Below, piece after piece: positions 5,629 to 42,957 of a DNA stretch of 43,022 nucleotides. Below the pieces are notes generated by a model. That model saw only the letters and a list, made by a program, of their open reading frames with translations, ran no database searches and was not told the origin of the DNA. The translations under genes and the position numbers were made by a program. Source of the DNA: an uncultured Candidatus Poseidoniales archaeon (lineage in GTDB: Archaea; Thermoplasmatota; Poseidoniia; Poseidoniales; Thalassarchaeaceae); the NCBI GenBank assembly GCA_964645485.1, contig CAZXZO010000017.1, positions 1 through 43,022 of the forward strand, given 5' to 3'. Each line of letters opens with the position of its first letter. Position 1 is the first letter of the stretch.

Positions 5629-5845
5629 TCTGCGAGTTTCCTATCCTATGCTCAGTCCAACTAGCAGGTCTTTGTGCGAAGCGAATTTTACCTCGATTTC
5701 AATTGCTTCGCACCGACTAGAAAATTTCCTTCACTTTGTTCAGTCCAATTTTCTAGCCCAGCGACAATCATTGATTCTTAAACGAATCATTGATTTTCGC
5801 GGGCTTTTTAATTTCATATAATTAATTAATATTGAAATTAAAAAG
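5629..5845. repeat. Array of five inverted-repeat (hairpin-forming) units downstream of tRNA-Thr
   Basis: Stems: ctgcgagtt/aactagcag (5630-5667), gtgcgaagc/gcttcgcac (5674-5713), ctagaaaatt/aattttctag (5717-5756), a 17-bp stem with 2 mismatches (5761-5800), and ctttttaatttca/tgaaattaaaaag (5804-5845). Confidence 0.9.
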
Positions 5846-5918
5846 AGCCAACGGAGAGATTTGAACTCCCGACCACCTGATTACAAATCAGGAGCACTAC
5901 CAGCTATGCAACGTTGGC
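5846..5918 (-). tRNA. tRNA-Thr(UGU), intronless, CCA not encoded
   Basis: Reverse complement GCCAACGTTGCATAGCTGGTAGTGCTCCTGATTTGTAATCAGGTGGTCGGGAGTTCAAATCTCTCCGTTGGCT folds as a cloverleaf. Anticodon stem CCTGA/TCAGG with TGT, T-loop TTCAAAT, followed by a T-run. Confidence 0.97.
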
Positions 5919-5943
5919 GCTAAGCCACCCGACACCCCCATTG

Positions 5944-5957
5944 GTTTTGAATATCAC
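5944..5957 (-). promoter_or_regulatory. Putative TATA-like element of tRNA-Thr
   Basis: Minus-strand ATATTCAAAA lies about 28-37 nt upstream of the tRNA 5' end. Assigned by position only. Confidence 0.35.
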
Positions 5958-6011
5958 AGTCGGAGGACAGCCCTAACGGTCAAGAATGAACGGCCTACAC
6001 GAGATAATGAA

Positions 6012-6884
6012 ATGGGCGCCCAAGTTCTTGATGGGAAGGCGTGTGGCGCCGAAGTTGAAGCCGAAGTAAAAGCCAAAGCATCAGCCTTGAATGCACGTGG
6101 AATAACCCCTCACTTAGCAGTGGTAATAGTTGGGGACGACCCGGCTAGTCATGTCTATGTAGGTGCAAAAGAGCGCGCTTGTGCTCGAGTAGGGGTCAAG
6201 AGTACCCGCATTGATTTGCCTGCCGACAGCGATTTTTCAAAGGTGGTAGATGTTGTTGAAAAACTAAATTCTGACTCCACAGTACATGGGATTTTGGTGC
6301 AGTCACCTCTGCCAAAAGGGATGGATGAGTTAGCCATAACCGACTTGATAGATCCGGCAAAAGATGTTGACGGATTTCATCCAGTGAATCTCGGTAGATT
6401 AGTCCAAGGCCGTGCTGATGGGCTTTTGCCTTGCACTCCAGCGGGTGTAATTCGCCTTCTTGAGTGGGGAGGAGTTGAAACCTCAGGAAAAAGTGCCGTA
6501 GTGATAGGGAGGTCACGCATTGTCGGTTCTCCTGTATCACTATTATTAGGTCGTAAGGGAGTTGATGCAACAGTGACAATTTCACATTCGCGAACTAGTG
6601 AAATTGCCGATGTCTGCCGCGCAGCAGACATCGTGATTGCAGCAGTTGGACGCCCTGAGATGGTTCAAGCAGATTGGGTAAAGCCGGGAGCGGCTGTGGT
6701 TGATGTGGGCGTGAACAGAGTTGATGACGAAAGCCGCGAGCGAGGCTATCGGTTGGCTGGTGATGTCCATCCAGACGTTGCCGATGTAGCAGGCCACCTC
6801 TCGCCGGTTCCAGGTGGAGTAGGGCCGATGACGATTGCAATGCTGATGCTCAACACAGTTACCGCCGCTGAATCAAATTCTTGA
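6012..6884 (+). CDS. folD: Bifunctional methylenetetrahydrofolate dehydrogenase/cyclohydrolase
   Basis: Motifs ASHVYVGAK, HGILVQSPLP, KDVDGFHPVNLG, PCTPAG, VIGRSRIVGSP, PVPGGVGPMTIAML. Confidence 0.97.
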   Translation: MGAQVLDGKACGAEVEAEVKAKASALNARGITPHLAVVIVGDDPASHVYVGAKERACARVGVKSTRIDLPADSDFSKVVDVVEKLNSDSTVHGILVQSPLPKGMDELAITDLIDPAKDVDGFHPVNLGRLVQGRADGLLPCTPAGVIRLLEWGGVETSGKSAVVIGRSRIVGSPVSLLLGRKGVDATVTISHSRTSEIADVCRAADIVIAAVGRPEMVQADWVKPGAAVVDVGVNRVDDESRERGYRLAGDVHPDVADVAGHLSPVPGGVGPMTIAMLMLNTVTAAESNS

Positions 6885-6936
6885 AGCGGAATCTGATTAG
6901 ATAAGCACAAATATTCTTTCACATTGTCGATAAACA

Positions 6937-8283
6937 ATGTCAGTGCGGATAATAGCACCTCTGCTCTTTGTCTTGCTACTGGCTCCGATGGCTGCATCGC
7001 AAAGCATTGGTGAGACATTACAAGAATGCCCAGGTACTCTGACTGGTAGTACAGAGCCAAGTCAAATCCATTTACAATTAACCGATAACCCGTCGGAAGT
7101 AGTGGTAATGTGGGCAACCGCACGCAGAGGAAATGCTGTGGTTGAATGGGACGGGCAAAGTGCTGATGGTGATTCATATTGCTATAATCACGACATGGCT
7201 TTTCACATGGCAACGATGAGTGACTTAACTCCTGGAGAAGAGGTAACTTACCGAGTTGGTGATGGGAATGACTGGTCACAGGAATACAAATTCACTCCAA
7301 TTGATATAGATGCGAATCGGTTTGAATGGATTGCAATCGCAGATTACGGCGATTCTTCAGAGGCTGTTGATGTGAAGGAAGCAATAATTGCAGATACTAC
7401 TGCACAAATGGTAACAATTTCTGGAGACATATCATATGCTGATGGTGAACAATCAACTTGGGATGATTGGTTCGTAGAACAAGAGGAAAGTATGACTCAC
7501 ATTCCTTGGGTAACTGCAGTTGGAAATCATGAAAATGAGCCGGGTTATGGATTCACCCCGTATGCTCATCGATTTGATGCGGATGGAATGAAGGAAACAG
7601 AGCCATTTTGGTTCAGCAGAGACTTTGCTGGCGTACACATGGTATTCATGTCAACTGAGCATGATTATGATTTAGGAAGTTCTCAATATGCTGCTTTGGA
7701 GGCAGATTTGTCTGCGGCTAATGCAAACCGTGAACAACGACCATTCGTAGTGGTGGTCGCTCACAAACCCATGTATTCGAGCAATAGTTACCACGGTTCA
7801 GAAATTGCTTTGCGTGAAGCGGTTGAAGAGTTATATCAAACTCATGGCGTAGATTTGGTAATTGCTGGGCATGATCATTTCTATGAGAGAACTTGGCCGG
7901 TTTTCGACGAAGAACCCCAAAACTTCGGAGGTGAGGGTGGTACACTATTCGGTCAGGGATTTGGTCCGATTCATATTGTCGCAGGTAATGCTGGACGTAC
8001 CCCATACACTGAGGTCGATGAACCCCAACCCGCTTGGTCTGCTTATCGTGAAGTAGATTCTTTTGGTTACATGAAATTAATTTATGATGAAGGGTCACGT
8101 AGCCTATCCTTCACATTTCACCGCACAGATCAAACAATAGGTGACCAATTCACAATACAGGAAGGTGTTGTGGATGAAAAAGAAGATGATAAATCACAAT
8201 TAATCCCAGGGTTTGGTACACTTTTGCCTTTAATTTCCTTAATCGGCGCGGCCTTTTTTCGTCGTGAACTAGCCTTAGATTGA
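6937..8283 (+). CDS. Secreted purple acid phosphatase-family metallophosphoesterase with a PGF-CTERM-like anchor
   Basis: Signal peptide, FN3-like N-domain, and PAP metal motifs DYG, GDISY, GNHE, VVAH, GHDH. C-terminus PGFGTLLPLISLIGAAFFRRE. Confidence 0.88.
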   Translation: MSVRIIAPLLFVLLLAPMAASQSIGETLQECPGTLTGSTEPSQIHLQLTDNPSEVVVMWATARRGNAVVEWDGQSADGDSYCYNHDMAFHMATMSDLTPGEEVTYRVGDGNDWSQEYKFTPIDIDANRFEWIAIADYGDSSEAVDVKEAIIADTTAQMVTISGDISYADGEQSTWDDWFVEQEESMTHIPWVTAVGNHENEPGYGFTPYAHRFDADGMKETEPFWFSRDFAGVHMVFMSTEHDYDLGSSQYAALEADLSAANANREQRPFVVVVAHKPMYSSNSYHGSEIALREAVEELYQTHGVDLVIAGHDHFYERTWPVFDEEPQNFGGEGGTLFGQGFGPIHIVAGNAGRTPYTEVDEPQPAWSAYREVDSFGYMKLIYDEGSRSLSFTFHRTDQTIGDQFTIQEGVVDEKEDDKSQLIPGFGTLLPLISLIGAAFFRRELALD

Positions 8284-8391
8284 GGCTTAGCATAGGATAC
8301 CGTCGAGACATACAATTAGCGCGTGCGTGCACAGAGCGTTTTTGCTAGTTTCAACCAGTCAATTAATCAAGTTCTAGTTTAGGGGAGCATC

Positions 8392-9525
8392 ATGGCGAGA
8401 AAGTCAATCAGCGTCGCTCATGATGATAAATTAGTGAAATTCCCAGAATTTTCAACTGATGATCCCTTAGTTTATGAATTGTTTAGTAATCTTTCTTCAG
8501 ATGATTATGAGGATTCATTCAATGCAATGTTACATATCGGGGCATTGGCCTTGATGGAGGACCGTATTGCACATTTAATTGATTCAGCAGAAAAGGAAAT
8601 CTATCCTCAGTTAGAGAGATTCAAATTGATGTTTGTGAGAGGTAAGGCCGAATTCACCCAAACAGCCCAAAAAAAGGGTGAGAAAGCAGAAGTAAATATT
8701 GTTGACTTACTCGATGAGTTCGCATCTTCAAATGGTTGGACTGATGAAATAGAACAGTCAGGTAAGATTAAAGGAAATTTAGATGGAAACAAGGTTGGAG
8801 ATGTTTTAGCAACAATTGAATTAACTCCTTCTGATGGCACCCCAACTGAACATACAGTAATCGGTATTGAGGTGAAGTTCGACAAGAGTATCAGTTTAGG
8901 CGATCCTACAAAATTGAATGTCGAAACAGGTGATTCGAAGGACAAAGGATTCAAAGCAAGTACCCAAAAAACCGCGTGGTCACAACTCTTAGAAACAAAA
9001 GCAAATCGAGATAGCCCTTTTTCAATAATGGTTTTCGATGCCAATCTATTATCACCAGATATGAGAAAAAATGTTGAGGATGTTGCTTATATTCCGGGAA
9101 TTCCTGGTTTCGTTGTAGTAATCAACTCCCAGACTGGAGACTATTCCAACTTAAAACTCGTTTACAAAATAGCAAGAGATATGGCAATCTATCACCATAT
9201 AGGGGAATTAGATGTTGAAACCCAAGTGATTGAACTCATAGTAAAACGATTATTACATTATCTTGGAGATGCAAAGAAAATATCAGACAAAATCCTAAAG
9301 CATACAAAAGCAACAGTGAAGATGAATTCTGAGATTCAAAATCTCCTGATTCATGCAGTTGAACACGCGGAATATTCAGAAGCATTTCTTGAGAGATATT
9401 TGAGTACGAAGAAATTGACTTCTGTAGATTTTGCTGAATTCTATTTTGCACACCCAGTTGCAGAGAAATTGAGAGAATCGAGCAAGTCAGAAAAAGAGTT
9501 CGCAAATAAATTGTTAAAAGATTGA
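8392..9525 (+). CDS. Hypothetical protein with a PD-(D/E)xK-like nuclease core (RmuC/DUF2130-like)
   Basis: KKGEKAEVNIVDLL...KVGDVLATI...IGIEVKFDK fits the E...D...ExK order, flanked by helical regions. AT-rich. Confidence 0.55.
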   Translation: MARKSISVAHDDKLVKFPEFSTDDPLVYELFSNLSSDDYEDSFNAMLHIGALALMEDRIAHLIDSAEKEIYPQLERFKLMFVRGKAEFTQTAQKKGEKAEVNIVDLLDEFASSNGWTDEIEQSGKIKGNLDGNKVGDVLATIELTPSDGTPTEHTVIGIEVKFDKSISLGDPTKLNVETGDSKDKGFKASTQKTAWSQLLETKANRDSPFSIMVFDANLLSPDMRKNVEDVAYIPGIPGFVVVINSQTGDYSNLKLVYKIARDMAIYHHIGELDVETQVIELIVKRLLHYLGDAKKISDKILKHTKATVKMNSEIQNLLIHAVEHAEYSEAFLERYLSTKKLTSVDFAEFYFAHPVAEKLRESSKSEKEFANKLLKD

Positions 9526-9659
9526 TTTTCATTTTCAAAATACATCATCAACCGACATAGCATTCCTGTGAAATCGCGAGGGTTCTCTAAAACCACTCAA
9601 GTCATTATGGGAAATTACAATGGGTGTTCAGTCCGTCAGCACACTTGCTAACCATTCAT

Positions 9660-10409
9660 TCATTCTTCTTCGCCCAGTGATTCCGTGTTTTCAACGGGTT
9701 GAAGGTCTAACATGAAACTGAATACTGTAAATACAATTCCTAGAACAAGCAAAAATTCCCACATGGCAGCATAGTTTAGCATTGGGTAGATTGAGGATGT
9801 GCAGAATTCCATCATATCATGGCTAGATGAGTTCCAAGTATCCCAATCAAAATCTTCAGTCCAAACGGTGGATTGCGCAGAAATCATTTGCCACAGCCCC
9901 ACAATTGCGAACAGAGATGGGACTAAACGCGCTGTGAGGATTTTGCGAAGAGAAGAACTATTCCAGTGAACACGAAGGGTCACAATATTTACTAAAACGC
10001 ACCAGTAAATTCCCTTGTAAAACACATCAAACGCATAACTCCCATGCATGAATCCATCGACATTCCAAGGTATCTGACCTACCATGTAACAAGAGTAGGC
10101 AGCAATCATTCCTGGAAAAATTGCACTGTGATTTAGTAAATGCCAGATTATTTTTGCATCTTTCTTTAGAAGTTCCTCTCGATTATGCATTTGGAGTTCA
10201 AACATTACCCAGATTACTGTAACAGCAGAAAGGAATGTACCAAGGCTGAATATGAAGTCTCCTGGTTGATAGAGGTCGAAGTCTGAGATAAACGGCATGA
10301 ATGCCTTGCATCCATTTGCAATCCAAGTCAAATAACATAAAACCAGCCATGTGAGAGTTACACCGGTAAAAATCTGTAGCGAAAGTCGCTTCCGCTGGCG
10401 TTGTTCCAT
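9660..10409 (-). CDS. Multi-pass membrane protein, Frag1/DRAM/Sfk1-like
   Basis: About 6 hydrophobic segments. MPFISD after TM1 and AAMWEFL near the C-terminus resemble the Frag1/DRAM pattern. Confidence 0.6.
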   Translation of the reverse strand: MEQRQRKRLSLQIFTGVTLTWLVLCYLTWIANGCKAFMPFISDFDLYQPGDFIFSLGTFLSAVTVIWVMFELQMHNREELLKKDAKIIWHLLNHSAIFPGMIAAYSCYMVGQIPWNVDGFMHGSYAFDVFYKGIYWCVLVNIVTLRVHWNSSSLRKILTARLVPSLFAIVGLWQMISAQSTVWTEDFDWDTWNSSSHDMMEFCTSSIYPMLNYAAMWEFLLVLGIVFTVFSFMLDLQPVENTESLGEEE

Positions 10410-10569
10410 ACCTCCCCGGAAAGCATTTGAGATATCAAACCATCATAACCAATTTTGAAGCACGTCCTGATAGTTAGTAAGTGACCAAGGAGTGAAGATA
10501 ATGAAAACCCATTATTGAAATCCAAAAGGATTCGTTGATACTATAGAGTATTGATTATTGGATTAAGAT

Positions 10570-11823
10570 ATGGCAGGCGCTGGTTCAACAACTGAACTGG
10601 TGATACTTTCTCTAGGTTTATCCGGTTTAATTGGAGGGAGTTTCCTTTGGTTTACATTTCGAGATAAGAATACCAATATTGTCAGTAGAATGAATTTGCT
10701 AATAATGTCATTATTATTCTTAATAAATTTTACAATTTTTGCCCTTTACACATTTAAGAATCTGTCTTCTTTTGAGGGGGCTGATGAAATCATTGACCCT
10801 ATGTTTCGGTACCTAAACATGGCCTCATTCTTGCAGTTTGGTTTACTTTTTTTGTTATTTCCTTCACCGATATTTACTGAACGAAAGCCAATTCTTATTG
10901 CAATGTGTTCTCTTCCTGTAATCTCATTTTCAATGATTTTGTTTGCAAGATTATTTTTTGAGCACTGGGAAACCACTGCTTTCCTTTTCCAGCAAGCACT
11001 GTTTTCCGGATTGTTTAGTTTGATTGCCATTCGGTGGTACATCCTTCACCGAACGAGCGATAGTTTGGTAAAACGAAACCACGCTATTGCCGCAGTTTTA
11101 CTCATGTTTGGGCTTGTGGGTGCAACATTGACAAGATGGCCAGTAATATTCAGTTTAGGTGGAGGTGATTTGTATACTGAAGGGTTTGGTGGATTCACCC
11201 TTCTTGCTTTCACAACATCAGCGCCTCTGTTTCTAGTTCACCACTCATTAGAGTTAATACCAATTCTTGGATTGTTTTTAGTTCTGATTACAGAAATAAT
11301 GGTGCCTAAGGAGAAACGAGATAAGGTGGTCCTATCACTCAGTTTATTCTTCTTCATTTTCGGTTTAGTGAATGTGATGGTGGTAAAATTCATTGATGTA
11401 AATGTCGATTTCCGCGTTCTTTGGCTCCATTTTGCCGCATCTGGGACTTTCGGCTTAATCCGTCCTGTTCTCTTTGTATATTTGGCTATCAAGTTTAATC
11501 TAGTAGATTTGAATCAAGAAGCAATTAGGAAAAAAGTCAGACTCATCGCGATACTTTTGACAACTGTTTGGGCATCAAGCCTTTTCGAGATTATCCAAGC
11601 ATTCCTACCAGTTCCCCAAATACTTTCAGCAGCGATTATTGGGGTTATCTTATCATTTGGAATAGGTTGGGAACAGAAAATTTTTGATGGTATTGCAACA
11701 ATCTCCGATGATGATTATTTGAGTGGGCCCAAAGATATTTTCGAAGAGTCAGATCTATTTAGGGTCGCAATGGCAACCGTTGTTTTTACATTATTATTGG
11801 TACTGTTTGGGTTGGTTCAATAA
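10570..11823 (+). CDS. Polytopic membrane protein of unknown function (~11-12 TM)
   Basis: 417-aa ORF that is hydrophobic throughout, with no recognised catalytic motif. Confidence 0.75.
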   Translation: MAGAGSTTELVILSLGLSGLIGGSFLWFTFRDKNTNIVSRMNLLIMSLLFLINFTIFALYTFKNLSSFEGADEIIDPMFRYLNMASFLQFGLLFLLFPSPIFTERKPILIAMCSLPVISFSMILFARLFFEHWETTAFLFQQALFSGLFSLIAIRWYILHRTSDSLVKRNHAIAAVLLMFGLVGATLTRWPVIFSLGGGDLYTEGFGGFTLLAFTTSAPLFLVHHSLELIPILGLFLVLITEIMVPKEKRDKVVLSLSLFFFIFGLVNVMVVKFIDVNVDFRVLWLHFAASGTFGLIRPVLFVYLAIKFNLVDLNQEAIRKKVRLIAILLTTVWASSLFEIIQAFLPVPQILSAAIIGVILSFGIGWEQKIFDGIATISDDDYLSGPKDIFEESDLFRVAMATVVFTLLLVLFGLVQ

Positions 11824-11827
11824 GGTG

Positions 11828-12493
11828 GTGAGAAAGTTGTATAATCCATTATTTAAATCCGAAGAGGAAAGCGGTGAAAGAAATCAATTTATTTTCTTCG
11901 GAATTCTTGTTGCAGTGATATTAATTGACTCAGCAATATTGGTTTTGGGTGATTATAGTATTGATATCAATGACCAATTAGATAACGCTGATGAATGGGA
12001 AATTAAATTCTCTAATTTGACATTAACCTCAAATTCAGAAGTTCTAATTTCAGATAATAATGAAGAGATTGTAACATTTGAGGTTCCTTCAAATTTCAGC
12101 GATGATGGGTGGATGGTCCAGGAAATTAGTATTGTCATAACTTACTCCGAAACATCATTTGGGGATGTTGATTGTGACACTGTGACTGCTGAGTTTGAAC
12201 ACGATGAGAAAACCGGAGTAAGTAGTGTTTCTGAGCAGACAAGTGGAGAATCTTCTGATTGTACAGAAATTCAAATGAACAAAGCATGGATGTATTTCAC
12301 AGACGGTGTATATCAAGACATATCAAAATCAGATGCCGAGAATATCTTAGCAATGGAAGAAGTAGGAATTGATGTCTTAGCATATATCAGAGTAAATACT
12401 GATAGTACAATTCCGAATAACGATGATGATGAAAATATTAGTGTTGATTTTACAATAACTCTGCAAAAGATTGAATCTATTACAAGAGTATAA
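11828..12493 (+). CDS. Acidic membrane-anchored hypothetical protein
   Basis: The track ORF 11723-12493 overlaps the upstream gene; GTG at 11828, just after its stop, is more likely. One N-terminal TM (FIFFGILVAVILIDSAILVLG), then a D/E-rich beta-type domain. Confidence 0.7.
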   Translation: MRKLYNPLFKSEEESGERNQFIFFGILVAVILIDSAILVLGDYSIDINDQLDNADEWEIKFSNLTLTSNSEVLISDNNEEIVTFEVPSNFSDDGWMVQEISIVITYSETSFGDVDCDTVTAEFEHDEKTGVSSVSEQTSGESSDCTEIQMNKAWMYFTDGVYQDISKSDAENILAMEEVGIDVLAYIRVNTDSTIPNNDDDENISVDFTITLQKIESITRV

Positions 12494-12549
12494 TGTTAGT
12501 CAATTAAGTCAGTGCAATGGTTACCTAGTGCTTGTTCTATAGAGATGGT

Positions 12550-12876: not shown

Positions 12877-13727
12877 TCCATCAACTGACGCGCTTCTTTG
12901 CGCACTTTAGTGAACATATTGAGGAATCCATTGGCCCGATTTGGGGTGAGGGTGTCTGAGAATCCAAGTTCCCTTGCGAAGGTCGCTGGGAAATCTGCTA
13001 CTTCTTCAGCGGATAACCCATTGATTGCTCTCTGAGTAATCGCCATCAATCCCTGAACAATTTGGGCATCTGCACCCCCCAGCATTCTGAAACCAGTTTC
13101 TTCGTCCATCGAACAGGTCACATGTGCTTCGGATTGGCAACCGTGAACTTTGTTGTCCTCATTCCACTCTTCAGGTGGTAATAACTCGCATTCACTTGCC
13201 CAGTCATAGAGCACTTCGTATCTCTCCATAGGGTCATCAATTTCTGAGAATTCATCAATTATTTCTTGTAGGGATGCCGGCCAATTCCCTGCGCCAAACC
13301 CAGCAACTTCGCCATCCCCAACTACCTTTGGGGTAGTTCGATTTGGTACTTCATCAATGATTTTCTCGACTCTTGAACCAACATCTTCCGCTAAATCATT
13401 GACAACGGGGTCATCAAACATTGCTAACATTTCGCGAGGTTCCATTGCCGAAACGATGACATCATCTCCTTCAACATGAATCGCAACATTGCAAGGCAAT
13501 AATACTCCAAGTTCTGGCCTTGCTTCCAAACCACGCGCTGCATGCTCAGGCATGCAAGCGCCAAGAATCAGATATGGCCGATACACTTCACCAAGAGATT
13601 GCATGACATTTCCAGCAACATCAATTTCACTAATTATACCAAATCCAGCCTCTGAAATCATTTCTCGCAAGATTTCAACGGTATCCTCAAAATTTGAATT
13701 GCTCTTAGCATGCCTCTCAAACTGCAT
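12873..13727 (-). CDS. sufE: DUF302-SufE fusion protein
   Basis: N-half has the DUF302 pattern (GFGIISEIDV, YLILGAC, GVLLPCNVAI). C-half is SufE-like (ERYEVLYDWA, KVHGCQSEAHV with the acceptor Cys, ADAQIVQGL, LTPNRANGF). Confidence 0.88.
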   Translation of the reverse strand: MQFERHAKSNSNFEDTVEILREMISEAGFGIISEIDVAGNVMQSLGEVYRPYLILGACMPEHAARGLEARPELGVLLPCNVAIHVEGDDVIVSAMEPREMLAMFDDPVVNDLAEDVGSRVEKIIDEVPNRTTPKVVGDGEVAGFGAGNWPASLQEIIDEFSEIDDPMERYEVLYDWASECELLPPEEWNEDNKVHGCQSEAHVTCSMDEETGFRMLGGADAQIVQGLMAITQRAINGLSAEEVADFPATFARELGFSDTLTPNRANGFLNMFTKVRKEARQLME

Positions 13728-13731
13728 ATTC

Positions 13732-35477: not shown

Positions 35478-35510
35478 CTCACCCCGTGAATCGACTCTAA
35501 CATTCCCACA

Positions 35511-37064
35511 TTAATCTTCATTGTGGATGTCCATGGAGTCAATTTCTTCAGGTTCTGAATCACCATTTCCGAGCTTAGCAGCGTCGTTGCGTTGCAATTC
35601 AAGCATCTGAAGATACTCTTCTGTGATATCTCCTGTGCAGTATTCACCGGTGAAACAAGAGGTGTCAAAGTCATGTGCATTTTCTTCTGAAATTGTGCAA
35701 GAAGCAATGAGGTCTTCTAAGTCTTGGTAGACTAGGAAGTCTGCACCAATTTCTTTTTCAATTTCTTTGATTGATTGTCCGTGAGCAATATATTCGTTTC
35801 TGGCTGGCATATCAATTCCGTACACATTTGGATGCAAAAGTGGCGGAGCAGAGGAAGCGAAATACACTTTCTTAGCGCCAACCTGTCGCGCCATCTCAAC
35901 AATTTTTCTTGAGGTATTTCCCCGGACAATTGAATCATCGACAAGCAAAACGGTTTTGCCCTCAAATTCATCTGGAAGCGGATTTAACTTTTTACGAACT
36001 GAATCTTTGCGTTGGGCTTGTCCGGGCATGATGAAAGTGCGACCAACATAGCGGTTTTTCACAAACCCTTCTCTGAATTCCACGCCAAGCCTAGCAGCTG
36101 TTTGAATTGCTGCATAACGTCCCGAATCAGGGATTGGCATCACAACATCAATTCCGTGGCCTGGCTTCAATCGCATAATTTTGTCCGCCAAGCGCTCACC
36201 CATGTTCAATCTCGCTTGATGGACCGACATTCCATCTATTACGGAATCAGGACGAGAGAAGTAAACGTATTCAAAAATGCAATTTTGTAGTTTAGGAGAT
36301 GAGTGGCATTGCTCAAGATACATTTTTCCATCAACTGAGATGAAAATACATTCGCCAGGTGCAACGTCTTGAATATCCTCGAATCCTAGAGTGTCAAGAG
36401 CAACACTTTCTGATGCGACTGCCCATTCAGTGACACCATTCTCATTCACGCTTTTCCCGTATACAAGGGGTCGAATCCCGAAGGGGTCTCGAAAAGCAAA
36501 GAGGCCATACCCGTTGATCATCCCTACTACAGAATAACCTCCACTTAACCGATAGTGGACCTCACGTACAGCTTTGAAAACTTGATGCACATCCAAATAT
36601 AGTCCATCTTCAATTTTTAACTGTCTTTTACCCAGTTTTTGTAACTCATGTGCGATTACATTCAGAAGAACTTCAGAATCTGAGGTGGTGTTGACATGTC
36701 GCAAGTCATCAAGATAGAGTTGTCTAGCCTGTTGCTTTGCATTGACTAAATTGCCGTTGTGGGCGATGGTTATTCCGTATGGTGAATTAACGTACAATGG
36801 TTGTGCTTCAGCCGATGAGCAGGTGCCAGCAGTTGGATATCGAACGTGGCCAATTCCCATCGAACCTTGGAGTCGCTCCATATGGCGCTCATGGAATACA
36901 TCTCGGACCAATCCATTAGATTTCCTTAGGTGAAGATGGTCATCATCACAGGTTACAATTCCAGCGGCATCTTGGCCTCGATGTTGTAGAACAAGAAGTC
37001 CGTCGTATAGCATCTTATTGACGTGCGAGCCGGGCTGGCCAGCAATGCCGATGATGCCACACAT
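35511..37064 (-). CDS. purF: Amidophosphoribosyltransferase
   Basis: MCGIIG, LQHRGQDAAG, GHVRYPTAG, HNGNL, YFSRPDS, LVDDSIVRGNT. ATG 37064 places Cys at position 2 (track start 37088). Confidence 0.97.
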   Translation of the reverse strand: MCGIIGIAGQPGSHVNKMLYDGLLVLQHRGQDAAGIVTCDDDHLHLRKSNGLVRDVFHERHMERLQGSMGIGHVRYPTAGTCSSAEAQPLYVNSPYGITIAHNGNLVNAKQQARQLYLDDLRHVNTTSDSEVLLNVIAHELQKLGKRQLKIEDGLYLDVHQVFKAVREVHYRLSGGYSVVGMINGYGLFAFRDPFGIRPLVYGKSVNENGVTEWAVASESVALDTLGFEDIQDVAPGECIFISVDGKMYLEQCHSSPKLQNCIFEYVYFSRPDSVIDGMSVHQARLNMGERLADKIMRLKPGHGIDVVMPIPDSGRYAAIQTAARLGVEFREGFVKNRYVGRTFIMPGQAQRKDSVRKKLNPLPDEFEGKTVLLVDDSIVRGNTSRKIVEMARQVGAKKVYFASSAPPLLHPNVYGIDMPARNEYIAHGQSIKEIEKEIGADFLVYQDLEDLIASCTISEENAHDFDTSCFTGEYCTGDITEEYLQMLELQRNDAAKLGNGDSEPEEIDSMDIHNED

Positions 37065-37169
37065 CTCGGTTCCCTGTTTGTGCCCCATCGCGGTAGGTAT
37101 TTGGTAATGTCCCCACGAGTAGGGCTTGGTTCAACTCATTTTTTGTCAAACTATGACAAATTAAGATGC

Positions 37170-37349
37170 TCAGTTTTTTGGTCGGCGGTTTTTCTTAGCC
37201 CAGCCGAATCCTCGGCGCTTAGCAGTAGCCCCATATCCACATGAAGAGCAGACGCTTTTCTGCTTGTGATACGAGTGCTTTCCGCAACGACGACAAAGAA
37301 TGTGTGTGCTCTTCTGGCGTTTACCCATGCTTGGTGTACCCTTACTCAT
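37170..37349 (-). CDS. rpl37e: 50S ribosomal protein eL37 (L37e), 59 aa, absent from the ORF track
   Basis: Translated by hand: [61 protein letters not shown]-like GGTGA upstream. Confidence 0.97.
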
Positions 37350-37407
37350 TCACTCACCACCTGCTATTTGCAGGCCGCCCGACCGACCCACCCATTATGA
37401 GGCTTGC

Positions 37408-37911
37408 TCATTCCTCTTCACTCTCAAAAGAGGTCGATTCCAACTCAAGTAATGGGTCAGACGGTGTTTCTCGACCTGTTACAAGGGTCAAAAGAATACC
37501 AAAACTAGCACTCAATGAAAGGAGAATAGCAAACTCCGCAGTTAACATCCGAATTGCGCCGATAGAAAATTGCGACCAGACATCAGTTGCTACGCCGGTT
37601 ACAGTCATCCCGGAGTCAACTAGCAATCCGTACAGTAAGGCGCCGACTACAGCAGCCAGAAGTGTTCCAAGCGCCTGCTCTACCAATTTTGCGTGTTTAT
37701 GTGATAATGCTAGGGTAATCATGAATAGAGCGCCGTTGACGAAAATGAAACTAATAATTGCAGAGTGGGCGAATCTTGACAAGATATCGACATCCTCTAC
37801 TTCACCGCGAACTTCTAAGTGAATATTTGCAATGAAAATTAACACTGTCAGGGTTAAAACAACTAGTGTGAGGGCCCGCCAATCTCGGACAACATCACCT
37901 TCATTCTTCAT
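37408..37911 (-). CDS. 4-TM membrane protein of unknown function
   Basis: Hydrophobic ORF with an ATGA overlap with the upstream gene. Confidence 0.75.
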   Translation of the reverse strand: MKNEGDVVRDWRALTLVVLTLTVLIFIANIHLEVRGEVEDVDILSRFAHSAIISFIFVNGALFMITLALSHKHAKLVEQALGTLLAAVVGALLYGLLVDSGMTVTGVATDVWSQFSIGAIRMLTAEFAILLSLSASFGILLTLVTGRETPSDPLLELESTSFESEEE

Positions 37912-38696
37912 TTATCCACCCCCGAGTTGGTTGAGATAATATCACGGATTGTAGCCGATTCTTCCTCACTTAATGGTTCAACAGATTCTGGTACACCCAT
38001 TCTTTTTTCGCCAAGCCAAACAAATGTGATGAAAATCATTAGTGCTAGGCCACTGCCAAACAACATTCCTCCAAGATCTCCTAATGCTCCCCAAGAAGCA
38101 CTTCTCCAAAACACCGGGTCATCTGAGTTTGTTCCTTGTGCTAAAAGATAGATTAATAGTAGGAATGAAGCAATTGAAATAAAGGCCATGACGGATGCTT
38201 CTTTGAACCTTGAATCACCCATGATTAGTGCGAAGGCAGCAGCAAATCCTGCAACTACAACTTGTGCGGTTAGGAAACTAGTCACGAAGTGTTGCCACCA
38301 AGGGTTTGCGACCCCGTCTATTGTGGGCCGAGCTTCAAACACCATCCATGCAAACCATGCGGCTGATAAAATCATCAATGCAAATCCAAATGGTCGAACT
38401 TTGCGTGGTAATGGGGCTACTGGAATCGGTCCTGAAAACAAAGTAAACCAAATGCCGAACAACATTGCAATTATTGGTCCGATAAGTGAAATCAATAGGT
38501 GTAAAGACCACCCTTCAGGGTTAGAATCTAAAGGACTAGGTTGAGCGATTATTGCTATCGTTAATAGAACCAAGAGGACTTTACCTGTGAATCTACGCTG
38601 AGATTCGTTGGAAACCACCAATCCGATTCCCAGCGGAAGTAGAAAGACAGGTAGCCAATACTGCCAGATGAGTGTTAGTCCAAGCATCTCAAACAA
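37908..38696 (-). CDS. Polytopic membrane protein of unknown function
   Basis: About 7 hydrophobic segments. Confidence 0.75.
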   Translation of the reverse strand: MFEMLGLTLIWQYWLPVFLLPLGIGLVVSNESQRRFTGKVLLVLLTIAIIAQPSPLDSNPEGWSLHLLISLIGPIIAMLFGIWFTLFSGPIPVAPLPRKVRPFGFALMILSAAWFAWMVFEARPTIDGVANPWWQHFVTSFLTAQVVVAGFAAAFALIMGDSRFKEASVMAFISIASFLLLIYLLAQGTNSDDPVFWRSASWGALGDLGGMLFGSGLALMIFITFVWLGEKRMGVPESVEPLSEEESATIRDIISTNSGVDK

Positions 38697-38838
38697 GCAC
38701 CGCGAGCAGGCTCATCACCTTGAAGATTGACTTTATGTACCTCAATTCTGCCTGTTCAAAATAGTGGGCTTAACACGACACTCTCAAATAGGGGTCGTCA
38801 GTGGGCGAGTCGCCCTAAGGGCATAGGTGATACATTCC

Positions 38839-39123
38839 ATGGTCAATCGTCCACGAAAAGTAAAGCGATACAGCCCTGCTGCTGGACGCCATACCGTGCA
38901 TACGATTGAGCGCGTGAAAAAGCGCCGTGCGAGTGAATTGAAGTGGGGTCAACGCCGATTCCGTAGGGTTACTGCCGGTTACCGTGGTTTCCCACGCCCG
39001 AAGCCAGAAGGACGAGAGAAGCCAACTCGCCGAGTTAACATTCTATACCGGTGCACAGAAACCGGTAAGGCACACACACCAAAGTGCTACAGAGCAAAGA
39101 AGTTCAACCTAACTGATGATTGA
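38839..39123 (+). CDS. rpl44e: 50S ribosomal protein eL42 (L44e)
   Basis: HTVHTIERVKKRRASELKWGQRRFRRVTAGYRGFPRP...EKPTRRVNILYRC. ATG 38839 follows AGGTGA; first gene of the conserved operon. Confidence 0.95.
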   Translation: MVNRPRKVKRYSPAAGRHTVHTIERVKKRRASELKWGQRRFRRVTAGYRGFPRPKPEGREKPTRRVNILYRCTETGKAHTPKCYRAKKFNLTDD

Positions 39124-39133
39124 GGTGAATACA

Positions 39134-39304
39134 ATGACAGGAAAATTTGTACGTGTATCTTGCCGTGATTGCGGAAATGAACAAGTTATCTTTGAGCGCG
39201 CTTGCACAAAGATTTCCTGTAATATCTGTGGGGCTACTCTAACTCAACCAGCAGGCGGCAAGGCAAAACTTGTCAGCGCTGCAGTGGTTGAAATTCTTGA
39301 GTAA
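39134..39304 (+). CDS. rps27e: 30S ribosomal protein eS27 (S27e)
   Basis: KFVRVSCRDCGNEQVIF...CNICGATLTQPAGGKA. ATG 39134 follows GAGGTGA. Confidence 0.96.
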   Translation: MTGKFVRVSCRDCGNEQVIFERACTKISCNICGATLTQPAGGKAKLVSAAVVEILE

Positions 39305-39324
39305 ACTCCGAGTGTGAATAACAA

Positions 39325-40116
39325 ATGACAGCAGATAATGATGATTGGCCTGAGGAAGGCGAAATTGTTGTTTGTGTGATTACCGAAGTCAAAAAGAATG
39401 GTGCATATGCCTCACTTGACAGTTATGGTGACAAAGAGGGTTTCATCTTCGTTGGTGAAATTGCTGCAGGATGGGTCAAGAATATTCGTGGATTTGTCCG
39501 CAAAGGACAGAGAATGGCTGCTAAAGTCATGAAGGTCAAGAAAGACCGCAAAACCGTTGAATTGTCTCTCAAATCTGTAAGTGAAGAACGTCGTCGTGAG
39601 GCGATGCAGAAGTGGAAGAACGAGAATCGAGCTACTCAACTCTTAGGGATTGTGGGAGAACGCGTAAAGTGGCCTGAGTCAGAAACTTCCGAGATGTCAA
39701 AAGAACTGGTGGAAGCGTTTGGCGACCTTTATACCGCATTTGAGGAATGTGCAATCGATGAATCAGCACTCAAAGATTTAGGATTCGAGGGCGACTGGTG
39801 TAAGATTTTCATTGAACTAGCAGTTGAGAATATCATACCGCCATTTGTCAATATTCGTGGATTTCTAGAAATCGAAGTTGTGGCAGAGGATGGCATCGAA
39901 GTCATACGAGAAGCACTGTCTGCAGCCGAAGAAGCAGGAACCGACACCGAAGATGAGACAGTTGTGACTTGTCACTATGATGGCGCTCCAAGATATCGAA
40001 TCGAAATAAGAGCGCCTGATTACAAAACAGCAGAAAATGCGTGGCGAGCAGCAGAATCAACTGCAATCCCTGTAATCAAGAGTGCTGGCGGCACTGCAGT
40101 CGCGCAGAGAGTCTGA
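39325..40116 (+). CDS. eif2a: Translation initiation factor aIF2 alpha subunit
   Basis: WPEEGEIVVC, S1 domain (GWVKNIRGFVRKGQ, VELSLKSV), GAPRYRIEIRAPDYKTAE. Confidence 0.96.
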   Translation: MTADNDDWPEEGEIVVCVITEVKKNGAYASLDSYGDKEGFIFVGEIAAGWVKNIRGFVRKGQRMAAKVMKVKKDRKTVELSLKSVSEERRREAMQKWKNENRATQLLGIVGERVKWPESETSEMSKELVEAFGDLYTAFEECAIDESALKDLGFEGDWCKIFIELAVENIIPPFVNIRGFLEIEVVAEDGIEVIREALSAAEEAGTDTEDETVVTCHYDGAPRYRIEIRAPDYKTAENAWRAAESTAIPVIKSAGGTAVAQRV

Positions 40117-40181
40117 AACCGAGGTTCGTTGGGCAATCGCTTTGAACCGTGTCCACTACAATTGGATGTAGGGTGGTGAAA

Positions 40182-40391
40182 ATGGCTCGCTCAAGAATTC
40201 AGAAATGCCGAGATTGTGGCAGTTATGGTCTTAGCACTACGTGCAAGAAGTGTGGAGGGGTTGCACAGGTCGCAGCCCCCCTCAAGTTTTCACCACAAGA
40301 CCCACAAGCAAAGCGCCGACGAGAATATGAAAATTTCACCGACCCAAAATGGGTGGAAAACCTCCCTAGTCCCAAGGAGGAAGAGGAGTGA
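40182..40391 (+). CDS. nop10: H/ACA RNP protein Nop10
   Basis: IQKCRDCGSYGLSTTCKKCGG...PLKFSPQDP...RR. ATG 40182 follows GGTGA; canonical position after aIF2-alpha. Confidence 0.92.
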   Translation: MARSRIQKCRDCGSYGLSTTCKKCGGVAQVAAPLKFSPQDPQAKRRREYENFTDPKWVENLPSPKEEEE

Positions 40392-41155
40392 GTAGGTCGA
40401 GAATAGTTTGGTATGGTGGGGCAAAAAAACTCCCCAAAAGTGAACTAATGCTTCACGCTGTTCCCGGTGTTGGAAATGTGGGTAAATTAGTGACGGACAG
40501 TCTCGTAAATACCCATGATAGCACTTTAGTCGCACGAATACTCCACCCTGACCTACCACCTCACGCAACTCTAAGTGAGAACGGAATTTTGACTCCACCT
40601 TCTCTTGAAATCCACTCTGTGAGTTTGCCAAGTGGAAGCAATATCATGACACTTTCAAGTAATTTTCAGCCTTTGACTCCGGCTGGTCAGTATGAAGTCG
40701 CTTCTTCATTTCTAGAATGCTGCAAGGATGCAAAAATCGGCCGTGTGTTGATTTTAGCAGGACTTTCGGCCGAGCCAGGCGATGAATCAGTTCATGTTGT
40801 ATGTGCGAGTGAAGATGATGTTAAAGAAATCACAGATATTGGTGTTGAAGTTTCCAAAGAGCATCCCGCTGCCGGAATTATTGGGATGACCGGGATGGTT
40901 TCATCTTTAGCACCCACGTTCGATCAGGCTTCAGCATGTGTAATCGCTGAAACGGTCGGCACCAGTGCTGATTCTGTAGCGGCCGACCGGATGGTCAATT
41001 TTCTCAAGGATTCATTCAAATTAGACCTTGGTCTTGAACTCAATAACACAAAAGAAACTGCTGAAAAGTTGAAGGCATTTTTTGACCTTGATGAAATCGC
41101 AGAAATGCCACTTGACTTTGATGTTGCAGAACAAGATGCAGGATTTTACGCCTGA
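40388..41155 (+). CDS. PAC2-family proteasome assembly chaperone
   Basis: AVPGVGNVGKLV, QPLTPAGQY, GIIGMTG; canonical position after nop10. Confidence 0.88.
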   Translation: MSRSRIVWYGGAKKLPKSELMLHAVPGVGNVGKLVTDSLVNTHDSTLVARILHPDLPPHATLSENGILTPPSLEIHSVSLPSGSNIMTLSSNFQPLTPAGQYEVASSFLECCKDAKIGRVLILAGLSAEPGDESVHVVCASEDDVKEITDIGVEVSKEHPAAGIIGMTGMVSSLAPTFDQASACVIAETVGTSADSVAADRMVNFLKDSFKLDLGLELNNTKETAEKLKAFFDLDEIAEMPLDFDVAEQDAGFYA

Positions 41156-41197
41156 CTTTGGTTCGTTTGGCATCTTTATTGTGCGACAAATGTGTAG

Positions 41198-41398
41198 TTA
41201 GCCACCTGATGAGACTATTACAAGTTCAAGGGAAACATCGCTGTTGAGTTGGCTATCATGTGGTACAATAATACCGTCATGTACTGCTAACACGGTACTT
41301 GGATGAATGTCCAGTTTGACTAGCAATTCTCGAATTCTGATGCCTTCATCACACTCAACCGAATGTGTCTTGTCATCATGAGTTAGGGATACGTGCAT
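41198..41398 (-). CDS. ThiS/MoaD/SAMP-like ubiquitin-fold protein
   Basis: 67 aa ending in VIVSSGG; IRELLVKLDIHPSTVLAVHDG. ATG 41398 follows GAGGA (track start 41434). Confidence 0.88.
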   Translation of the reverse strand: MHVSLTHDDKTHSVECDEGIRIRELLVKLDIHPSTVLAVHDGIIVPHDSQLNSDVSLELVIVSSGG

Positions 41399-41441
41399 AA
41401 TCCTCGGAAGTGATTGCCCATTTTGATTGTTCACATCTGGT

Positions 41442-41461
41442 AATAATAATTAATTATTATT
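41442..41461. repeat. Perfect 20-bp AT-only palindrome
   Basis: aataataatt|aattattatt. Confidence 0.9.
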
Positions 41462-41546
41462 TGACAAACCCTCTAACAAACGGGGTTTCGCTACCCATGG
41501 TGAATTTTTGTAGAACCTATCGTTTAATAGAGCCGGGTATTTCAGA

Positions 41547-42563
41547 ATGAATATGTCAGACAATCTCATCTGCTTAACATGTGGAAATAATCTTGTGGTA
41601 GATGAATTATTTGATGTCTATTCGTCAATCTGTTTTTCCTGCGGGGATGTGGGGAAATTCACTAAGACAAGAAGAATTACTTCTTCAGCAACTAGCATCG
41701 TTCTTGAGGCTTTGAAGGATGGGCTCAAACCCAACCCAAGAGCCGCTAGCCACAAAGTGTACCGGCACAAACTAGCGGATGAAAAGAAGATTGCGAAAGC
41801 CTTCCGTAGTACATTTCGTACTTTGATAAATCACAAGGATGGAATGAGAGATTGGGCTCCCCCAAAAGTTATGAGAACTCAAGAGCAATTTCTTGATGGT
41901 ACAAGAAAAGAATATAATATGCCCAAAAGGATGACAAAAACACAGATTGAAGGGGATTCTATAGGTGAATTGTATGAACATTATTTTTGCCATCTTGTTG
42001 CAGATCATCCACGGATGACGAGTCTAAATATGGAACAGAGAGTATATCTTGCGAATGGTGAAATGTTGCTGAGAGGTAAACCAGATTTTGCTTATCTATA
42101 CCAAGGAAAGGATGAGACAATGACTATTCCGGTGGAGTTGAAAACGGTAAAAGAAGATGTATTTGACCATGGAAAGTTGAGAGATGATACTCTAAAACAA
42201 GTTTCGAGATATGCTTATCTTGGCCAAAAAATTGGGTGGTCAAATCGACCAATTTGCGCGTTAATATTGGTCGCAAGAGATAGTGGCCGTTGTACAACGA
42301 TGATAATTGATGACAGATATTATTCAGAAAAGGACCATAAAAACAAATTAATTGAAAAAATTGGAGTTCTTGATGCAAGATTAAAGAATCATGATTCTGG
42401 TAAAGTGCCTCTTGCTAGAGCTTGGAATCTGCTTTCAGAAAAAGAGGATTTTGAGTCATTAGATGAAGGTGATGGCCTCTTAAGCATTGATAAATGGGTC
42501 ATCAATGCAGTGCAAGCAAGAATTGATAGAGTGAATAAACGTACAAAAAAAGTTGATTCATAA
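41547..42563 (+). CDS. PD-(D/E)xK nuclease of RecB/Cas4-like type with an N-terminal Zn ribbon
   Basis: CLTC...CFSC; IGELYEHYF, LRGKPDF, PVELKT, QVSRYA (QxxxY). AT-rich, K/R-rich. Confidence 0.8.
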   Translation: MNMSDNLICLTCGNNLVVDELFDVYSSICFSCGDVGKFTKTRRITSSATSIVLEALKDGLKPNPRAASHKVYRHKLADEKKIAKAFRSTFRTLINHKDGMRDWAPPKVMRTQEQFLDGTRKEYNMPKRMTKTQIEGDSIGELYEHYFCHLVADHPRMTSLNMEQRVYLANGEMLLRGKPDFAYLYQGKDETMTIPVELKTVKEDVFDHGKLRDDTLKQVSRYAYLGQKIGWSNRPICALILVARDSGRCTTMIIDDRYYSEKDHKNKLIEKIGVLDARLKNHDSGKVPLARAWNLLSEKEDFESLDEGDGLLSIDKWVINAVQARIDRVNKRTKKVDS

Positions 42564-42566
42564 AGA

Positions 42567-42957
42567 TGTCAAGCTATTGTGAAGGACAGAGAGATAGAAT
42601 ATTTTTGATTCTAAAAATTCCTTCACCATGATCAGTCCAATTCTACAACTATACGAGTTTTCAGTTGAAACTTTAATTTTGGAAAACTCGCGTGGTTCAA
42701 TTCTCTTTCCATTATATTGAAAATGCTGGGAAAGCCGAGAGGGAGATTTGCTCAGTGTCAGAATGGTGGAATTGTTGAGTTATGTCCAGTTCTGACTTGT
42801 TGCAAACTCCCCTCGCTTCGCTCAGTCCAGTTTGCAACCATCGCGTGTGCGGCCGAATTGTTGAGAATTGTACAGCACACGCTTGGTTCAAACTCCCTTC
42901 GGCACCTTCTTTGCAGTCATGTGCTATGAGCGAAGGCGCCGAGAGGGAGATTTGAAC
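42567..42957. repeat. Tandemly duplicated ~190-200-bp structured module downstream of tRNA-Ser, each copy ending in the tRNA 3' end
   Basis: Matching landmarks: tgtca 42567/42756, TCAGTCC ending 42638/42828, ggttcaa 42694/42885, gccgagagggagatttg 42734/42938. Confidence 0.85.
42734..42750 (-). repeat. Exact 17-bp direct-repeat copy of the tRNA-Ser 3' end (att-like)
   Basis: gccgagagggagatttg is identical to 42938-42954. Confidence 0.95.

Follow-up and report, generated by a model that had tools for sequence, protein, structure and literature searches.

The stretch of DNA analysed here (the window) is 43,022 nt long and represents the entire contig CAZXZO010000017.1 (C17) of the assembly GCA_964645485.1 (G000), which comes from an uncultured Candidatus Poseidoniales archaeon of the Thalassarchaeaceae (Marine Group II); this genome of 1.94 Mb consists of 55 contigs and is 82% complete. 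Two tRNA genes of the window, for tRNA-Thr(TGT) and tRNA-Ser(CGA), lie on the minus strand, and each is followed by an array of hairpins. Four of these hairpins share a centre that reads GGACTGA-N-C-NNN-G-N-GARGGA on the tRNA strand. We suggest that they are copies of the conserved hairpin (P3) of gene-less elements inserted at tRNA 3′ ends, in which P3 is accompanied by a variable hairpin (P2) and by a pairing (P1) between a box and a copy of the tRNA end. The tRNA genes were located with ARAGORN and the Rfam tRNA model, and copies of P3 were scored with a covariance model (R1) built from an alignment (A1) of 11 hairpin copies. The two arrays contain the following features.

5845..5918, minus strand: tRNA-Thr(TGT), anchor of array 1 (ARAGORN; Rfam tRNA model, 64.1 bits), with TCTTTTT directly 3′ of it
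5805..5844, minus strand: T-run and AT-rich hairpin abutting tRNA-Thr (sequence, fold)
5756..5804, minus strand: P2-type hairpin of the Thr array, base GCCCGCG...CGCTGGGC
5717..5756, minus strand: P3, Thr copy 1, a 10-bp stem enclosing GGACTGAACAAAGTGAAGGA (R1 55 bits, E 1.1e-12; DNA fold z -2.96)
5674..5714, minus strand: intervening hairpin GGTGCGAAGC...GCTTCGCAC, at the P2 position of a second, truncated module
5630..5667, minus strand: P3, Thr copy 2, with one stem mismatch and the 3′ half of the motif shifted (GGATAGGA) (R1 48.6 bits)
5460..5629, minus strand: distal degenerate Thr array, three repeats of ~58 nt (read from sequence)
42935..43019, minus strand: tRNA-Ser(CGA), anchor of array 2, at the contig end (ARAGORN; Rfam 48.5 bits)
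42885..42897, minus strand: Ser module 1, box (GGGAGTTTGAACC), in which the T-arm region is present as a degenerate inverted copy
42843..42882, minus strand: P2 of Ser module 1 (GCGTGTGC...GCACACGC) (sequence, fold)
42799..42838, minus strand: P3, Ser copy 1, a 10-bp stem enclosing GGACTGAGCGAAGCGAGGGG (R1 48.4 bits; DNA fold z -4.88)
42757..42796, minus strand: extra hairpin GTCAGAA...TTCTGAC between P3 and the tRNA-end copy, not in the ortholog of a congener (G011)
42734..42750, minus strand: 17-nt direct repeat that closes module 1, an exact match (CAAATCTCCCTCTCGGC) to 42938-42954 at the 3′ end of tRNA-Ser
42653..42705, minus strand: Ser module 2, with box GAGAATTGAACC at 42694-42705 and P2 CGCGAGTTTTC...GAAAACTCGT at 42653-42692
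42611..42645, minus strand: P3, Ser copy 2, motif intact (GGACTGATCATGGTGAAGGA) and stem decayed (R1 43.5 bits; no stable fold)
42584..42597, minus strand: degenerate second copy of the tRNA-Ser 3′ end (CTATCTCTCTGTCC), of weak similarity, just before the convergent ORF stop at 42563

An original prediction, made from the letters of the window, had singled out 20-nt segments at 5639-5658, 5727-5746, 42619-42638 and 42809-42828, and all four are present as described. Their stems also agree with that description (two perfect stems of 10 bp, one of 9 bp with a mismatch and one degenerate), the segments at 5727 and 42809 differ by transitions alone (five), and the proximal hairpin lies ~89 nt from the 3′ end of tRNA-Thr and 97-99 nt from that of tRNA-Ser. 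With R1, these copies reach 43-55 bits (E 4e-9 to 1e-12 genome-wide), and Thr copy 1 has the top score in G000. When folded as DNA, two copies fell well beyond shuffled sequences (z -3.0 and -4.9), one was marginal and one remained unfolded; nearest-neighbour folding leaves out G·A pairs, so that the stability of P3 is underrated by it. The 7-mer alone is not significant, with 11 occurrences on both strands of the window against ~5 expected, and GGACTGA, which occurs 178 times in G000, is not unusual there. A search with Rfam 15 matched nothing but tRNAs in the window and in five unit-bearing loci.

Each array is bounded by its tRNA and by the stop codon of a convergent open reading frame (ORF), at 145-5415 for Thr and at 41547-42563 for Ser. 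In the Thr array, the T-run and the AT-rich hairpin occupy the position of the spacer and the inverted tRNA-end copy of intact modules, and the base of the P2-type hairpin resembles the family base CTCCGCG...CGCTGGAG, the changes between the two being compensating. This array has two P3 and P2-type hairpins and is without a box and without a tRNA-end repeat. Each of the ~58-nt repeats at its distal end contains a ATAAAATCNGATTTTAT-type palindrome and a GCGAAGC or GCAAAGC word, and no tRNA 3′-end copy is recognisable in 5460..5629; these repeats may be older decayed units or a separate hairpin family. In the Ser array, the box of module 1 is degenerate, and its ortholog in G011 is a complete inverted copy, GCCGAGAGGAGATTTGAACCC. 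As for the neighbouring gene, the ORF at 145-5415 (1756 aa) has a weak match to the Reelin subrepeat alone, and its 3′ end is conserved among congeners while the intergenic array is not.

The architecture of the unit was established by reading 500 nt behind five tRNAs, and all 34 tRNAs of G000 were scanned for repeats of their 3′ ends. Intact P3 sits in a gene-less module of 130-205 bp, which is single or tandem. On the tRNA strand, the module starts with a spacer (13-45 nt, often beginning with TCA at the position of the tRNA's CCA), after which come the box, then P2 and P3, and finally the tRNA 3′ end once more as a direct repeat. The box is the reverse complement of the T-loop and the 3′ strand of the T-stem of its own tRNA, or of the acceptor strand in the antisense type. 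P2 combines the conserved base with a top that differs in every unit, and the terminal direct repeat begins inside the T-loop and extends to the discriminator or slightly past it. Two types can be distinguished by the strand of P3, which is sense to the tRNA in type B. The antisense P3 of type A directly adjoins the terminal copy, and its apex is often enlarged. Downstream tRNA-end repeats were found at 9-10 of the 34 tRNAs (1-3 copies, spaced by 117-281 nt), and upstream copies at none of them. At Leu-GAG, Leu-CAA, Ser-CGA, Pro, Gln and Thr (the latter in the congener G004), the repeats measure 16-31 bp and span from the T-loop to at least the end of the tRNA. The original prediction did not draw on these repeats, which define the modules.

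The box matches its own tRNA over 14-16 consecutive bases (Leu-TAG, Pro-GGG, Arg-CCT, Leu-TAA and Leu-CAA), as against 4-8 consecutive bases in matches of this kind for tRNAs without units. The minimum-free-energy folds of whole units are three-way junctions, with P1 formed between the box and the copy of the tRNA end that closes the unit. No conserved terminal inverted repeats were found at the element ends, which vary by locus. Some tandem units are nearly identical: units A and A′ at Leu-CAA differ at 1 of 165 nt, and three Asn copies in G001 have an identical P3. In G011, the P3 stem of the Ser-CGA units is that of the Leu-TAG units, and compared with its G000 ortholog it has three consecutive compensated pairs changed. 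P3 modules, judging from these sequences, pass from one locus to another.

The family is not confined to the two loci of the window but spans ten or more tRNAs across G000. Eleven strong R1 matches (E 3e-6 to 1e-12) were obtained in this genome, and all 11 lie 83-310 nt downstream of a tRNA 3′ end. The tRNAs concerned are Thr-TGT (two matches), Ser-CGA (two), Leu-TAA (two), Leu-CAA, Leu-GAG, Pro-TGG, Gly-TCC and Phe-GAA. Weaker matches occur within the array at Leu-CAA, behind tRNA-Ser(GGA) at a distance of 83 nt, and where a contig ends. Among the occurrences of GGACTGA, those with flanking complementarity include copies outside the window on contigs C18, C2 and C13, each behind a tRNA-Leu. 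Stretches at such distances (83-310 nt) downstream of tRNAs make up ~0.5% of the G000 genome.

R1 was also run on 100 relatives, 20 of which are congeners. Copies occur in 5 of the 20 congeners, with 1-9 in each, and three more distant genomes of the order have single weaker copies. The matches in relatives were inspected at 22 fetched loci. In 15 of them a tRNA lies 30-400 nt away, the match being invariably on its 3′ side, and the loci without a nearby tRNA are mostly cut by contig ends; one locus (L012/L040) has no tRNA within 2.3 kb. It lies on contig C8 of G011 and is a complete unit ending in ...CCCTGCACCA that follows a gene for a thrombospondin-repeat protein. In related genomes, P3 has the same strand as the tRNA in ~60% of copies and the opposite strand in ~40%. 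In total, units were found at at least 15 different tRNA species, each matched to its own tRNA. Elsewhere in G011 (L041, C26, 2900-4504), the last unit of an array stops after the 5′ base of P2 and enters a 508-aa ORF without a Pfam match. It was also observed that several contigs of G000 end close to a tRNA: C2, C4, C20, C22 and C36 stop 0-40 nt past a tRNA gene and C54 stops 121 nt past one, and the window contig ends 3 nt upstream of tRNA-Ser. The assembly seems to break at variable tRNA flanks.

Orthologous sites were compared among congeners. At the Thr(TGT) locus the flanking genes are conserved in the genus, and the 426-nt array of the window is without counterpart. The site is empty in G005, G012, G013, G014 and G016 (~65 nt: tRNA with encoded CCA, a small hairpin and a T-run). 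The same locus in G004 contains exactly one 165-nt type-A unit between repeats of ~31 bp, with the original terminator beyond the distal repeat, and in G001 it contains two units and a stub. G000 and G011 both carry a 157-bp type-B unit at Leu(GAG), a site that has no insertion in G004, G005, G013, G014, G016 and G017. The empty Leu(GAG) site reads ...CTCTGCA followed by TCAAAACACA, and the filled site has the 22-bp repeat AAATCCTGCCCTCTGCATCAAA. Because these orthologous tRNA-Thr and tRNA-Leu(GAG) sites are either empty or filled, with direct repeats of 22-31 bp, the modules are insertions.

In five arrays, CCA follows the distal copy and TCA or TCT follows the tRNA itself. The fact that the distal copy keeps CCA fits the view that it is the tRNA end that was there originally. 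The second to fourth base of the T-loop is where the repeat begins, and an imperfect similarity runs on to the left of it; the sequence after the proximal copy belongs to the element and that after the distal copy to the native flank. Furthermore, the two mismatches between the repeats in G004 are distributed reciprocally, as a crossover between them would yield. Based on the T-loop start, the left-hand similarity, the flank pattern and these reciprocal mismatches, the products look like Campbell-type insertions with the crossover in the T-loop. The units have two marks of att-type elements, namely flanking repeats that include the 3′ part of the tRNA, and presence or absence at orthologous sites with the tRNA intact both ways. 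The empty and filled sites, together with the direct repeats, bear out one option of the original prediction, that of remnants of a non-autonomous element targeting tRNAs.

The structure of P3 was analysed in an alignment (A2) of 48 model-aligned copies, 45 of which are distinct sequences. The conserved segment had been taken for a 20-nt loop read by a protein. Instead, it is a structured helix with two tandem G·A motifs, two Watson-Crick pairs between them and, as a cap, a C(RNA)G mini-hairpin whose own stem covaries. In the outer stem, 9 of the 10 pairs vary on both sides, and 84.7% of the cells are paired, compared with 58.8% in shuffled alignments (none of 500 shuffles reached the observed value) and 23-44% when the 3′ partners were displaced by 1-3 columns. 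The stems therefore covary, as the original prediction of a fixed geometry with replaced stems had implied. Within the centre, the pairs are distributed as follows.

Closing pair: T-A in 42 of 45 copies
Positions 2-20, 3-19, 6-16 and 7-15: G·A or A·G in 37-42 of 45
Pair 4-18: C-G in 42 of 45
Pair 5-17: U-A in 17, U·G in 20 and C-G in 5 of the 45 copies
Pair 8-14: GC in 22, AT in 7, CG in 7, TA in 2 and GT in 3
Pair 9-13: C-G in 37

A triloop R-N-A closed by C-G is present in 30 of the 33 short P3 copies, and in some copies a longer hairpin replaces the apex, for example GGAAC-GTA-GTTCC behind tRNA-Ser(GGA). GCGAAGC and CCGAAGG are frequent among the apices, and ACAAAGT also occurs. It is known that d(GCGAAGC) and d(CCGAAGG) are extraordinarily stable DNA mini-hairpins of single-strand initiation signals and phage origins (PMC13037366), and that the stability of such mini-hairpins relies on the C-G closing pair (PMC3201870). 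P3 resembles them in the two pairs that close an R-N-A triloop and in the further sheared-type G·A positions that flank these, and differs by its longer conserved context, T-GGACTGA...GARGGA-A. On the complementary strand, the G·A positions could give C·T mismatches only, so that the purine-rich strand would be the folded one if the non-Watson-Crick positions matter.

The same centre occurs in bacteria and phages. An exact-pattern scan with one genome per species gave a total near chance, but the matches listed were clustered, and the multi-copy genomes among them belong to Planococcaceae, Bacillaceae, Planctomycetota including Kuenenia, and Treponema and other Spirochaetia. The 22-nt centre, T-GGACTGA-NC-NNN-GN-GARGGA-A, was found in multi-copy palindromic repeats of Sporosarcina, Psychrobacillus and Lysinibacillus as well as of Planctomycetota and Treponema (loci L064-L143), and three related tailed-phage contigs from IMG/VR (L059, L061, L062) carry it at an intergenic spot. 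In the multi-copy families, it lies in a hairpin or at the apex of a palindromic repeat of 85-130 nt, and positions 8 and 14 are complementary; the scattered single matches have neither this setting nor this complementarity. The bacterial copies have no tRNA within 600 nt and no recurrent neighbouring protein, the phage copies likewise lie away from tRNAs, and no Rfam family matched at the motif in the bacterial and phage loci at permissive thresholds. The Bacilli repeats that were inspected (~130 nt, palindromic) have ends of their own, GTTGATT...AATCAAC, and no long duplication. P3 is a module common to small repeats across domains. In viral and metagenome collections, the pattern GAACTCCGCG-N(20-50)-CGCTGGAG gave approximately a chance number of matches, with no real unit among the loci inspected.

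Based on the above results, we consider that, on balance, the four hairpins of the window are probably the conserved P3 of gene-less, non-autonomous elements of att type that insert at tRNA 3′ ends in one genus of Thalassarchaeaceae, possibly as folded single strands. We suggest the following course of events. Integration would take place by a crossover within the T-loop, whereby the element would supply the working 3′ end of the tRNA, and the original end, often with an encoded CCA, would be moved to the far side. Repeated insertions would build tandem arrays, which would later decay. Since the units are gene-less and without conserved ends, we read them as non-autonomous, similar to cis-mobilizable elements (CIMEs), and they may be moved in trans by a site-specific recombinase, presumably of the tyrosine type. 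The inverted copy matched to the target has no role in ordinary double-stranded att sites, and a folded single strand, probably DNA, is therefore the likely substrate. In such a strand, the box and the tRNA-end copy would pair and so restore the target as a duplex, from which P2 and P3 would project as side arms, and the P3 helix with its mini-hairpin may serve as a recognition or priming feature.

The units share much with known systems. The CIMEs and integrase elements at tRNAs (PMC5704250) likewise insert at tRNA 3′ ends, provide a replacement 3′ end and are flanked by direct repeats from the T-loop to the tRNA end. CIMEs also accrete in tandem and have no internal integrase gene (PMC5704250), and integrase elements with a like core occur in the genus. 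In contrast, the units are only 130-205 bp long, are without remnant genes, occur at at least 15 tRNAs and carry an inverted target copy beside the direct one as well as a conserved pair of hairpins. A limited literature search found no description of such units.

The attC sites of integrons and the attP(+) hairpin of the CTX phage, which is used by XerCD, are folded single-strand sites and imperfect palindromes of ~60-140 nt. As in the units, their sequence is variable and their shape conserved, and inverted cores pair into the recombination site; attC arrays also grow from one fixed site, each unit ending in the same core. In the predicted folds, the box and the tRNA end form a palindrome of this kind by pairing with each other, which is a likeness of shape only. 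The core of the units differs, being 13-20 nt of a tRNA gene and not GTTRRRY/RYYYAAC or dif; no cargo gene lies between the sites, and no gene for IntI or another integrase adjoins any array. Of the mechanisms put forward in the original prediction, a folded single-stranded DNA site similar to attC is the most attractive one in view of the pairing of inverted and direct copies and the apex of DNA type.

Several observations weigh against this reading. No recombinase is linked to any unit: as had been noted, the window contains none, and the single tyrosine recombinase gene of G000, which we take to be XerA-like, is on another contig, far from the units. Five carrier genomes (G000, G001, G004, G006 and G011), all of which are incomplete metagenome-assembled genomes, were searched, and no integrase gene was found in them on a contig adjoining a unit. 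It would be hard for one sequence-specific integrase to serve at least 15 tRNA species, each matched by its own units, and a double-stranded DNA circle of 150 bp would be a poor substrate; excised forms were not observed. The idea of a single strand, in turn, would draw on structure alone. The flanking hairpins have no G·U strand bias and both of their strands fold equally well, so that the claim of a folded strand falls to P3 by itself, where G·T in the stem outnumbers A·C (29 against 6), largely owing to one column of related copies. The presence of the centre in bacterial repeats away from tRNAs shows that P3 is not tied to tRNA targeting. Finally, the Thr array of the window would be a decayed array, its history being read from other loci.

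An alternative is that the units are transposase-less miniature inverted-repeat transposable elements (MITEs) of a hairpin-seeking DDE insertion sequence (IS) similar to IS1182, the tRNA-end repeat being a target duplication and P3 an internal hairpin. We consider this unlikely, although there are published precedents: ISBma2 of the IS1182 family makes 18-26-bp duplications of hairpin-forming targets (PMC2877748), and IS1272/TnSha1 inserts into hairpins (PMC4923244). The repeats of 16-31 bp are in the range of the published duplications, a target duplication would account for hits in any tRNA with the 3′ end preserved, and the P3 centre is also found in the ~130-nt palindromic repeats of Bacilli. 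Members of the IS1182 family produce duplications that are long and variable or seek structured targets, and they have small, palindromic, gene-less derivatives, which the units may resemble. However, the units lack conserved terminal inverted repeats, their ends vary by locus, and the duplicated stretch is neither a hairpin nor palindromic, always beginning inside the T-loop and not spanning a whole hairpin. The imperfect similarity to the left of the repeat would not be expected from a duplication made at insertion, and the inverted target copy borne by the element is left unexplained. In addition, the five carrier genomes, incomplete as they are, contain no transposase of PF13751 or PF05598, and the inspected Bacilli repeats, as described above, have ends of their own and no long duplication.

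It could also be supposed that the units are inert scars, that is, attP-arm leftovers of internally deleted viruses or plasmids, in which the hairpins were formerly protein-binding or terminator elements. This is possible for decayed copies, of which there are many, including Thr copy 2 and Ser copy 2, but as an account of the whole family it seems quite unlikely. In its favour, many contigs of G000 stop shortly after a tRNA, tRNA 3′ flanks of congeners harbour integrase elements and a CRISPR-Cas island, and in one G011 array the last unit is a stub that gives way to unrelated coding sequence. The family nevertheless has the same compact architecture at at least 15 tRNAs with no trace of cargo genes, and the near-identical tandem copies (Leu-CAA A and A′; the three Asn copies of G001) are not what scars would be expected to show. 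Moreover, the stems stay paired through double changes, P3 modules pass between loci, and the single integrase element examined is without P3.

The hairpins might instead act as RNA, being tRNA trailers or small RNAs, sense or antisense, with the centre bound by an L7Ae-like protein or serving as a stabiliser or processing signal. Where the T-run is absent (Ser and Leu loci), transcription from the tRNA promoter could extend into sense copies; the CUGA and GA words pair as in box C′/D′ (G·A, A·G, U-A or U·G, C-G), and U·G is found at pair 5-17 in 20 of 45 copies. We regard this reading as improbable, and structured pre-tRNA trailers, another option of the original prediction, with it, as the units are insertions that close relatives lack at the orthologous sites, ~40% of the P3 copies in related genomes are antisense to the tRNA, and T5 stands directly behind the tRNA-Thr of the window. 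At the apex there is a triloop as in DNA mini-hairpins and not a GNRA or UNCG tetraloop, the flanking hairpins are without a G·U strand bias, and no Rfam family was matched. Among known RNA motifs, K-turn, K-loop and box C/D were rejected, as neither register gives a 3-nt bulge beside a Watson-Crick stem; box C/D has its CUGA and G·A positions here, but RUGAUGA and a guide region are missing. A likeness to the hammerhead or the sarcin-ricin loop was discarded because the core words do not align.

Substrates of REP/HUH type, which had also been proposed, and relations to repetitive extragenic palindromes (REP) with their REP-associated tyrosine transposases (RAYT) or to IS200/IS605 find no support, since no Y1 HUH transposase (PF01797) was matched in the five carrier genomes, incomplete as they are. 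The same applies to casposons: the sole Cas1 in these genomes is a Cas4-Cas1 fusion of a type V locus and not of the casposase type, and the units have no terminal inverted repeats.

Taking the proposal of folded att-type elements further, the units may be an archaeal counterpart of integron cassettes and of folded attP sites of the CTX type, without cargo, docking at the stretch from the T-loop to the 3′ end of any tRNA, each with a direct and an inverted target copy and served by a tyrosine recombinase of the host or of a helper. The helix with G·A pairs and mini-hairpin would then be a cross-domain signal of single-stranded DNA, for priming or recognition, common to the repeats of Bacilli, Planctomycetota and spirochaetes. 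We offer this wider idea only tentatively.

The units are of interest for several reasons. Foreign DNA enters the genomes of Marine Group II mainly at tRNA 3′ flanks, and assemblies of these abundant, uncultured archaea break there; tiny elements that rebuild tRNA 3′ ends would explain part of this instability, and R1 may be used as a marker for locating island borders. In annotation, the partial copies of tRNAs that they contain may be confused with tRNA pseudogenes or with provirus att sites. An element with both target orientations and nothing else would offer a small and testable example of site-specific recombination guided by structure in archaea, and the 22-nt centre in unrelated bacterial repeats points to a common reader or a common function of single-stranded DNA.

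Other elements are also found at tRNAs in these genomes. In G000, further families of units were observed behind tRNA-Gln(CTG) (C1:131967-132284, L007), tRNA-Phe and tRNA-Gly (C19, L009, and C3, L006). The one at tRNA-Gln(CTG) comprises three units of 117-155 nt with an identical layout and a different hairpin apex, TAGCGCTTGCAAACAATTGA. A full-length parent element was also looked for. On contig C35 of G011 (L046, 1-15423), an integrase gene (2861-3748; PF00589, 3.6e-24) follows tRNA-Ala(TGC), and the 16-bp 3′ end of this tRNA recurs 10.2 kb away at 13054-13069, where another integrase-like ORF overlaps it with its 3′ end. This element has the same kind of core as the units and no P3, and was rejected as the parent; the ORFs beside orphan or truncated units, which are surface-protein-like or without a Pfam match and include no recombinase, gave no candidate either. 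The tRNA-Ala region looks like two elements in tandem.

CRISPR-Cas systems are rare in Marine Group II archaea. In G001, a type V CRISPR-Cas locus (C35:1-7453, L403) lies directly downstream of tRNA-Phe(GAA) and includes a 1475-aa Cas12b-like ORF (PF22126), the Cas4-Cas1 fusion, Cas2 and a CRISPR array.

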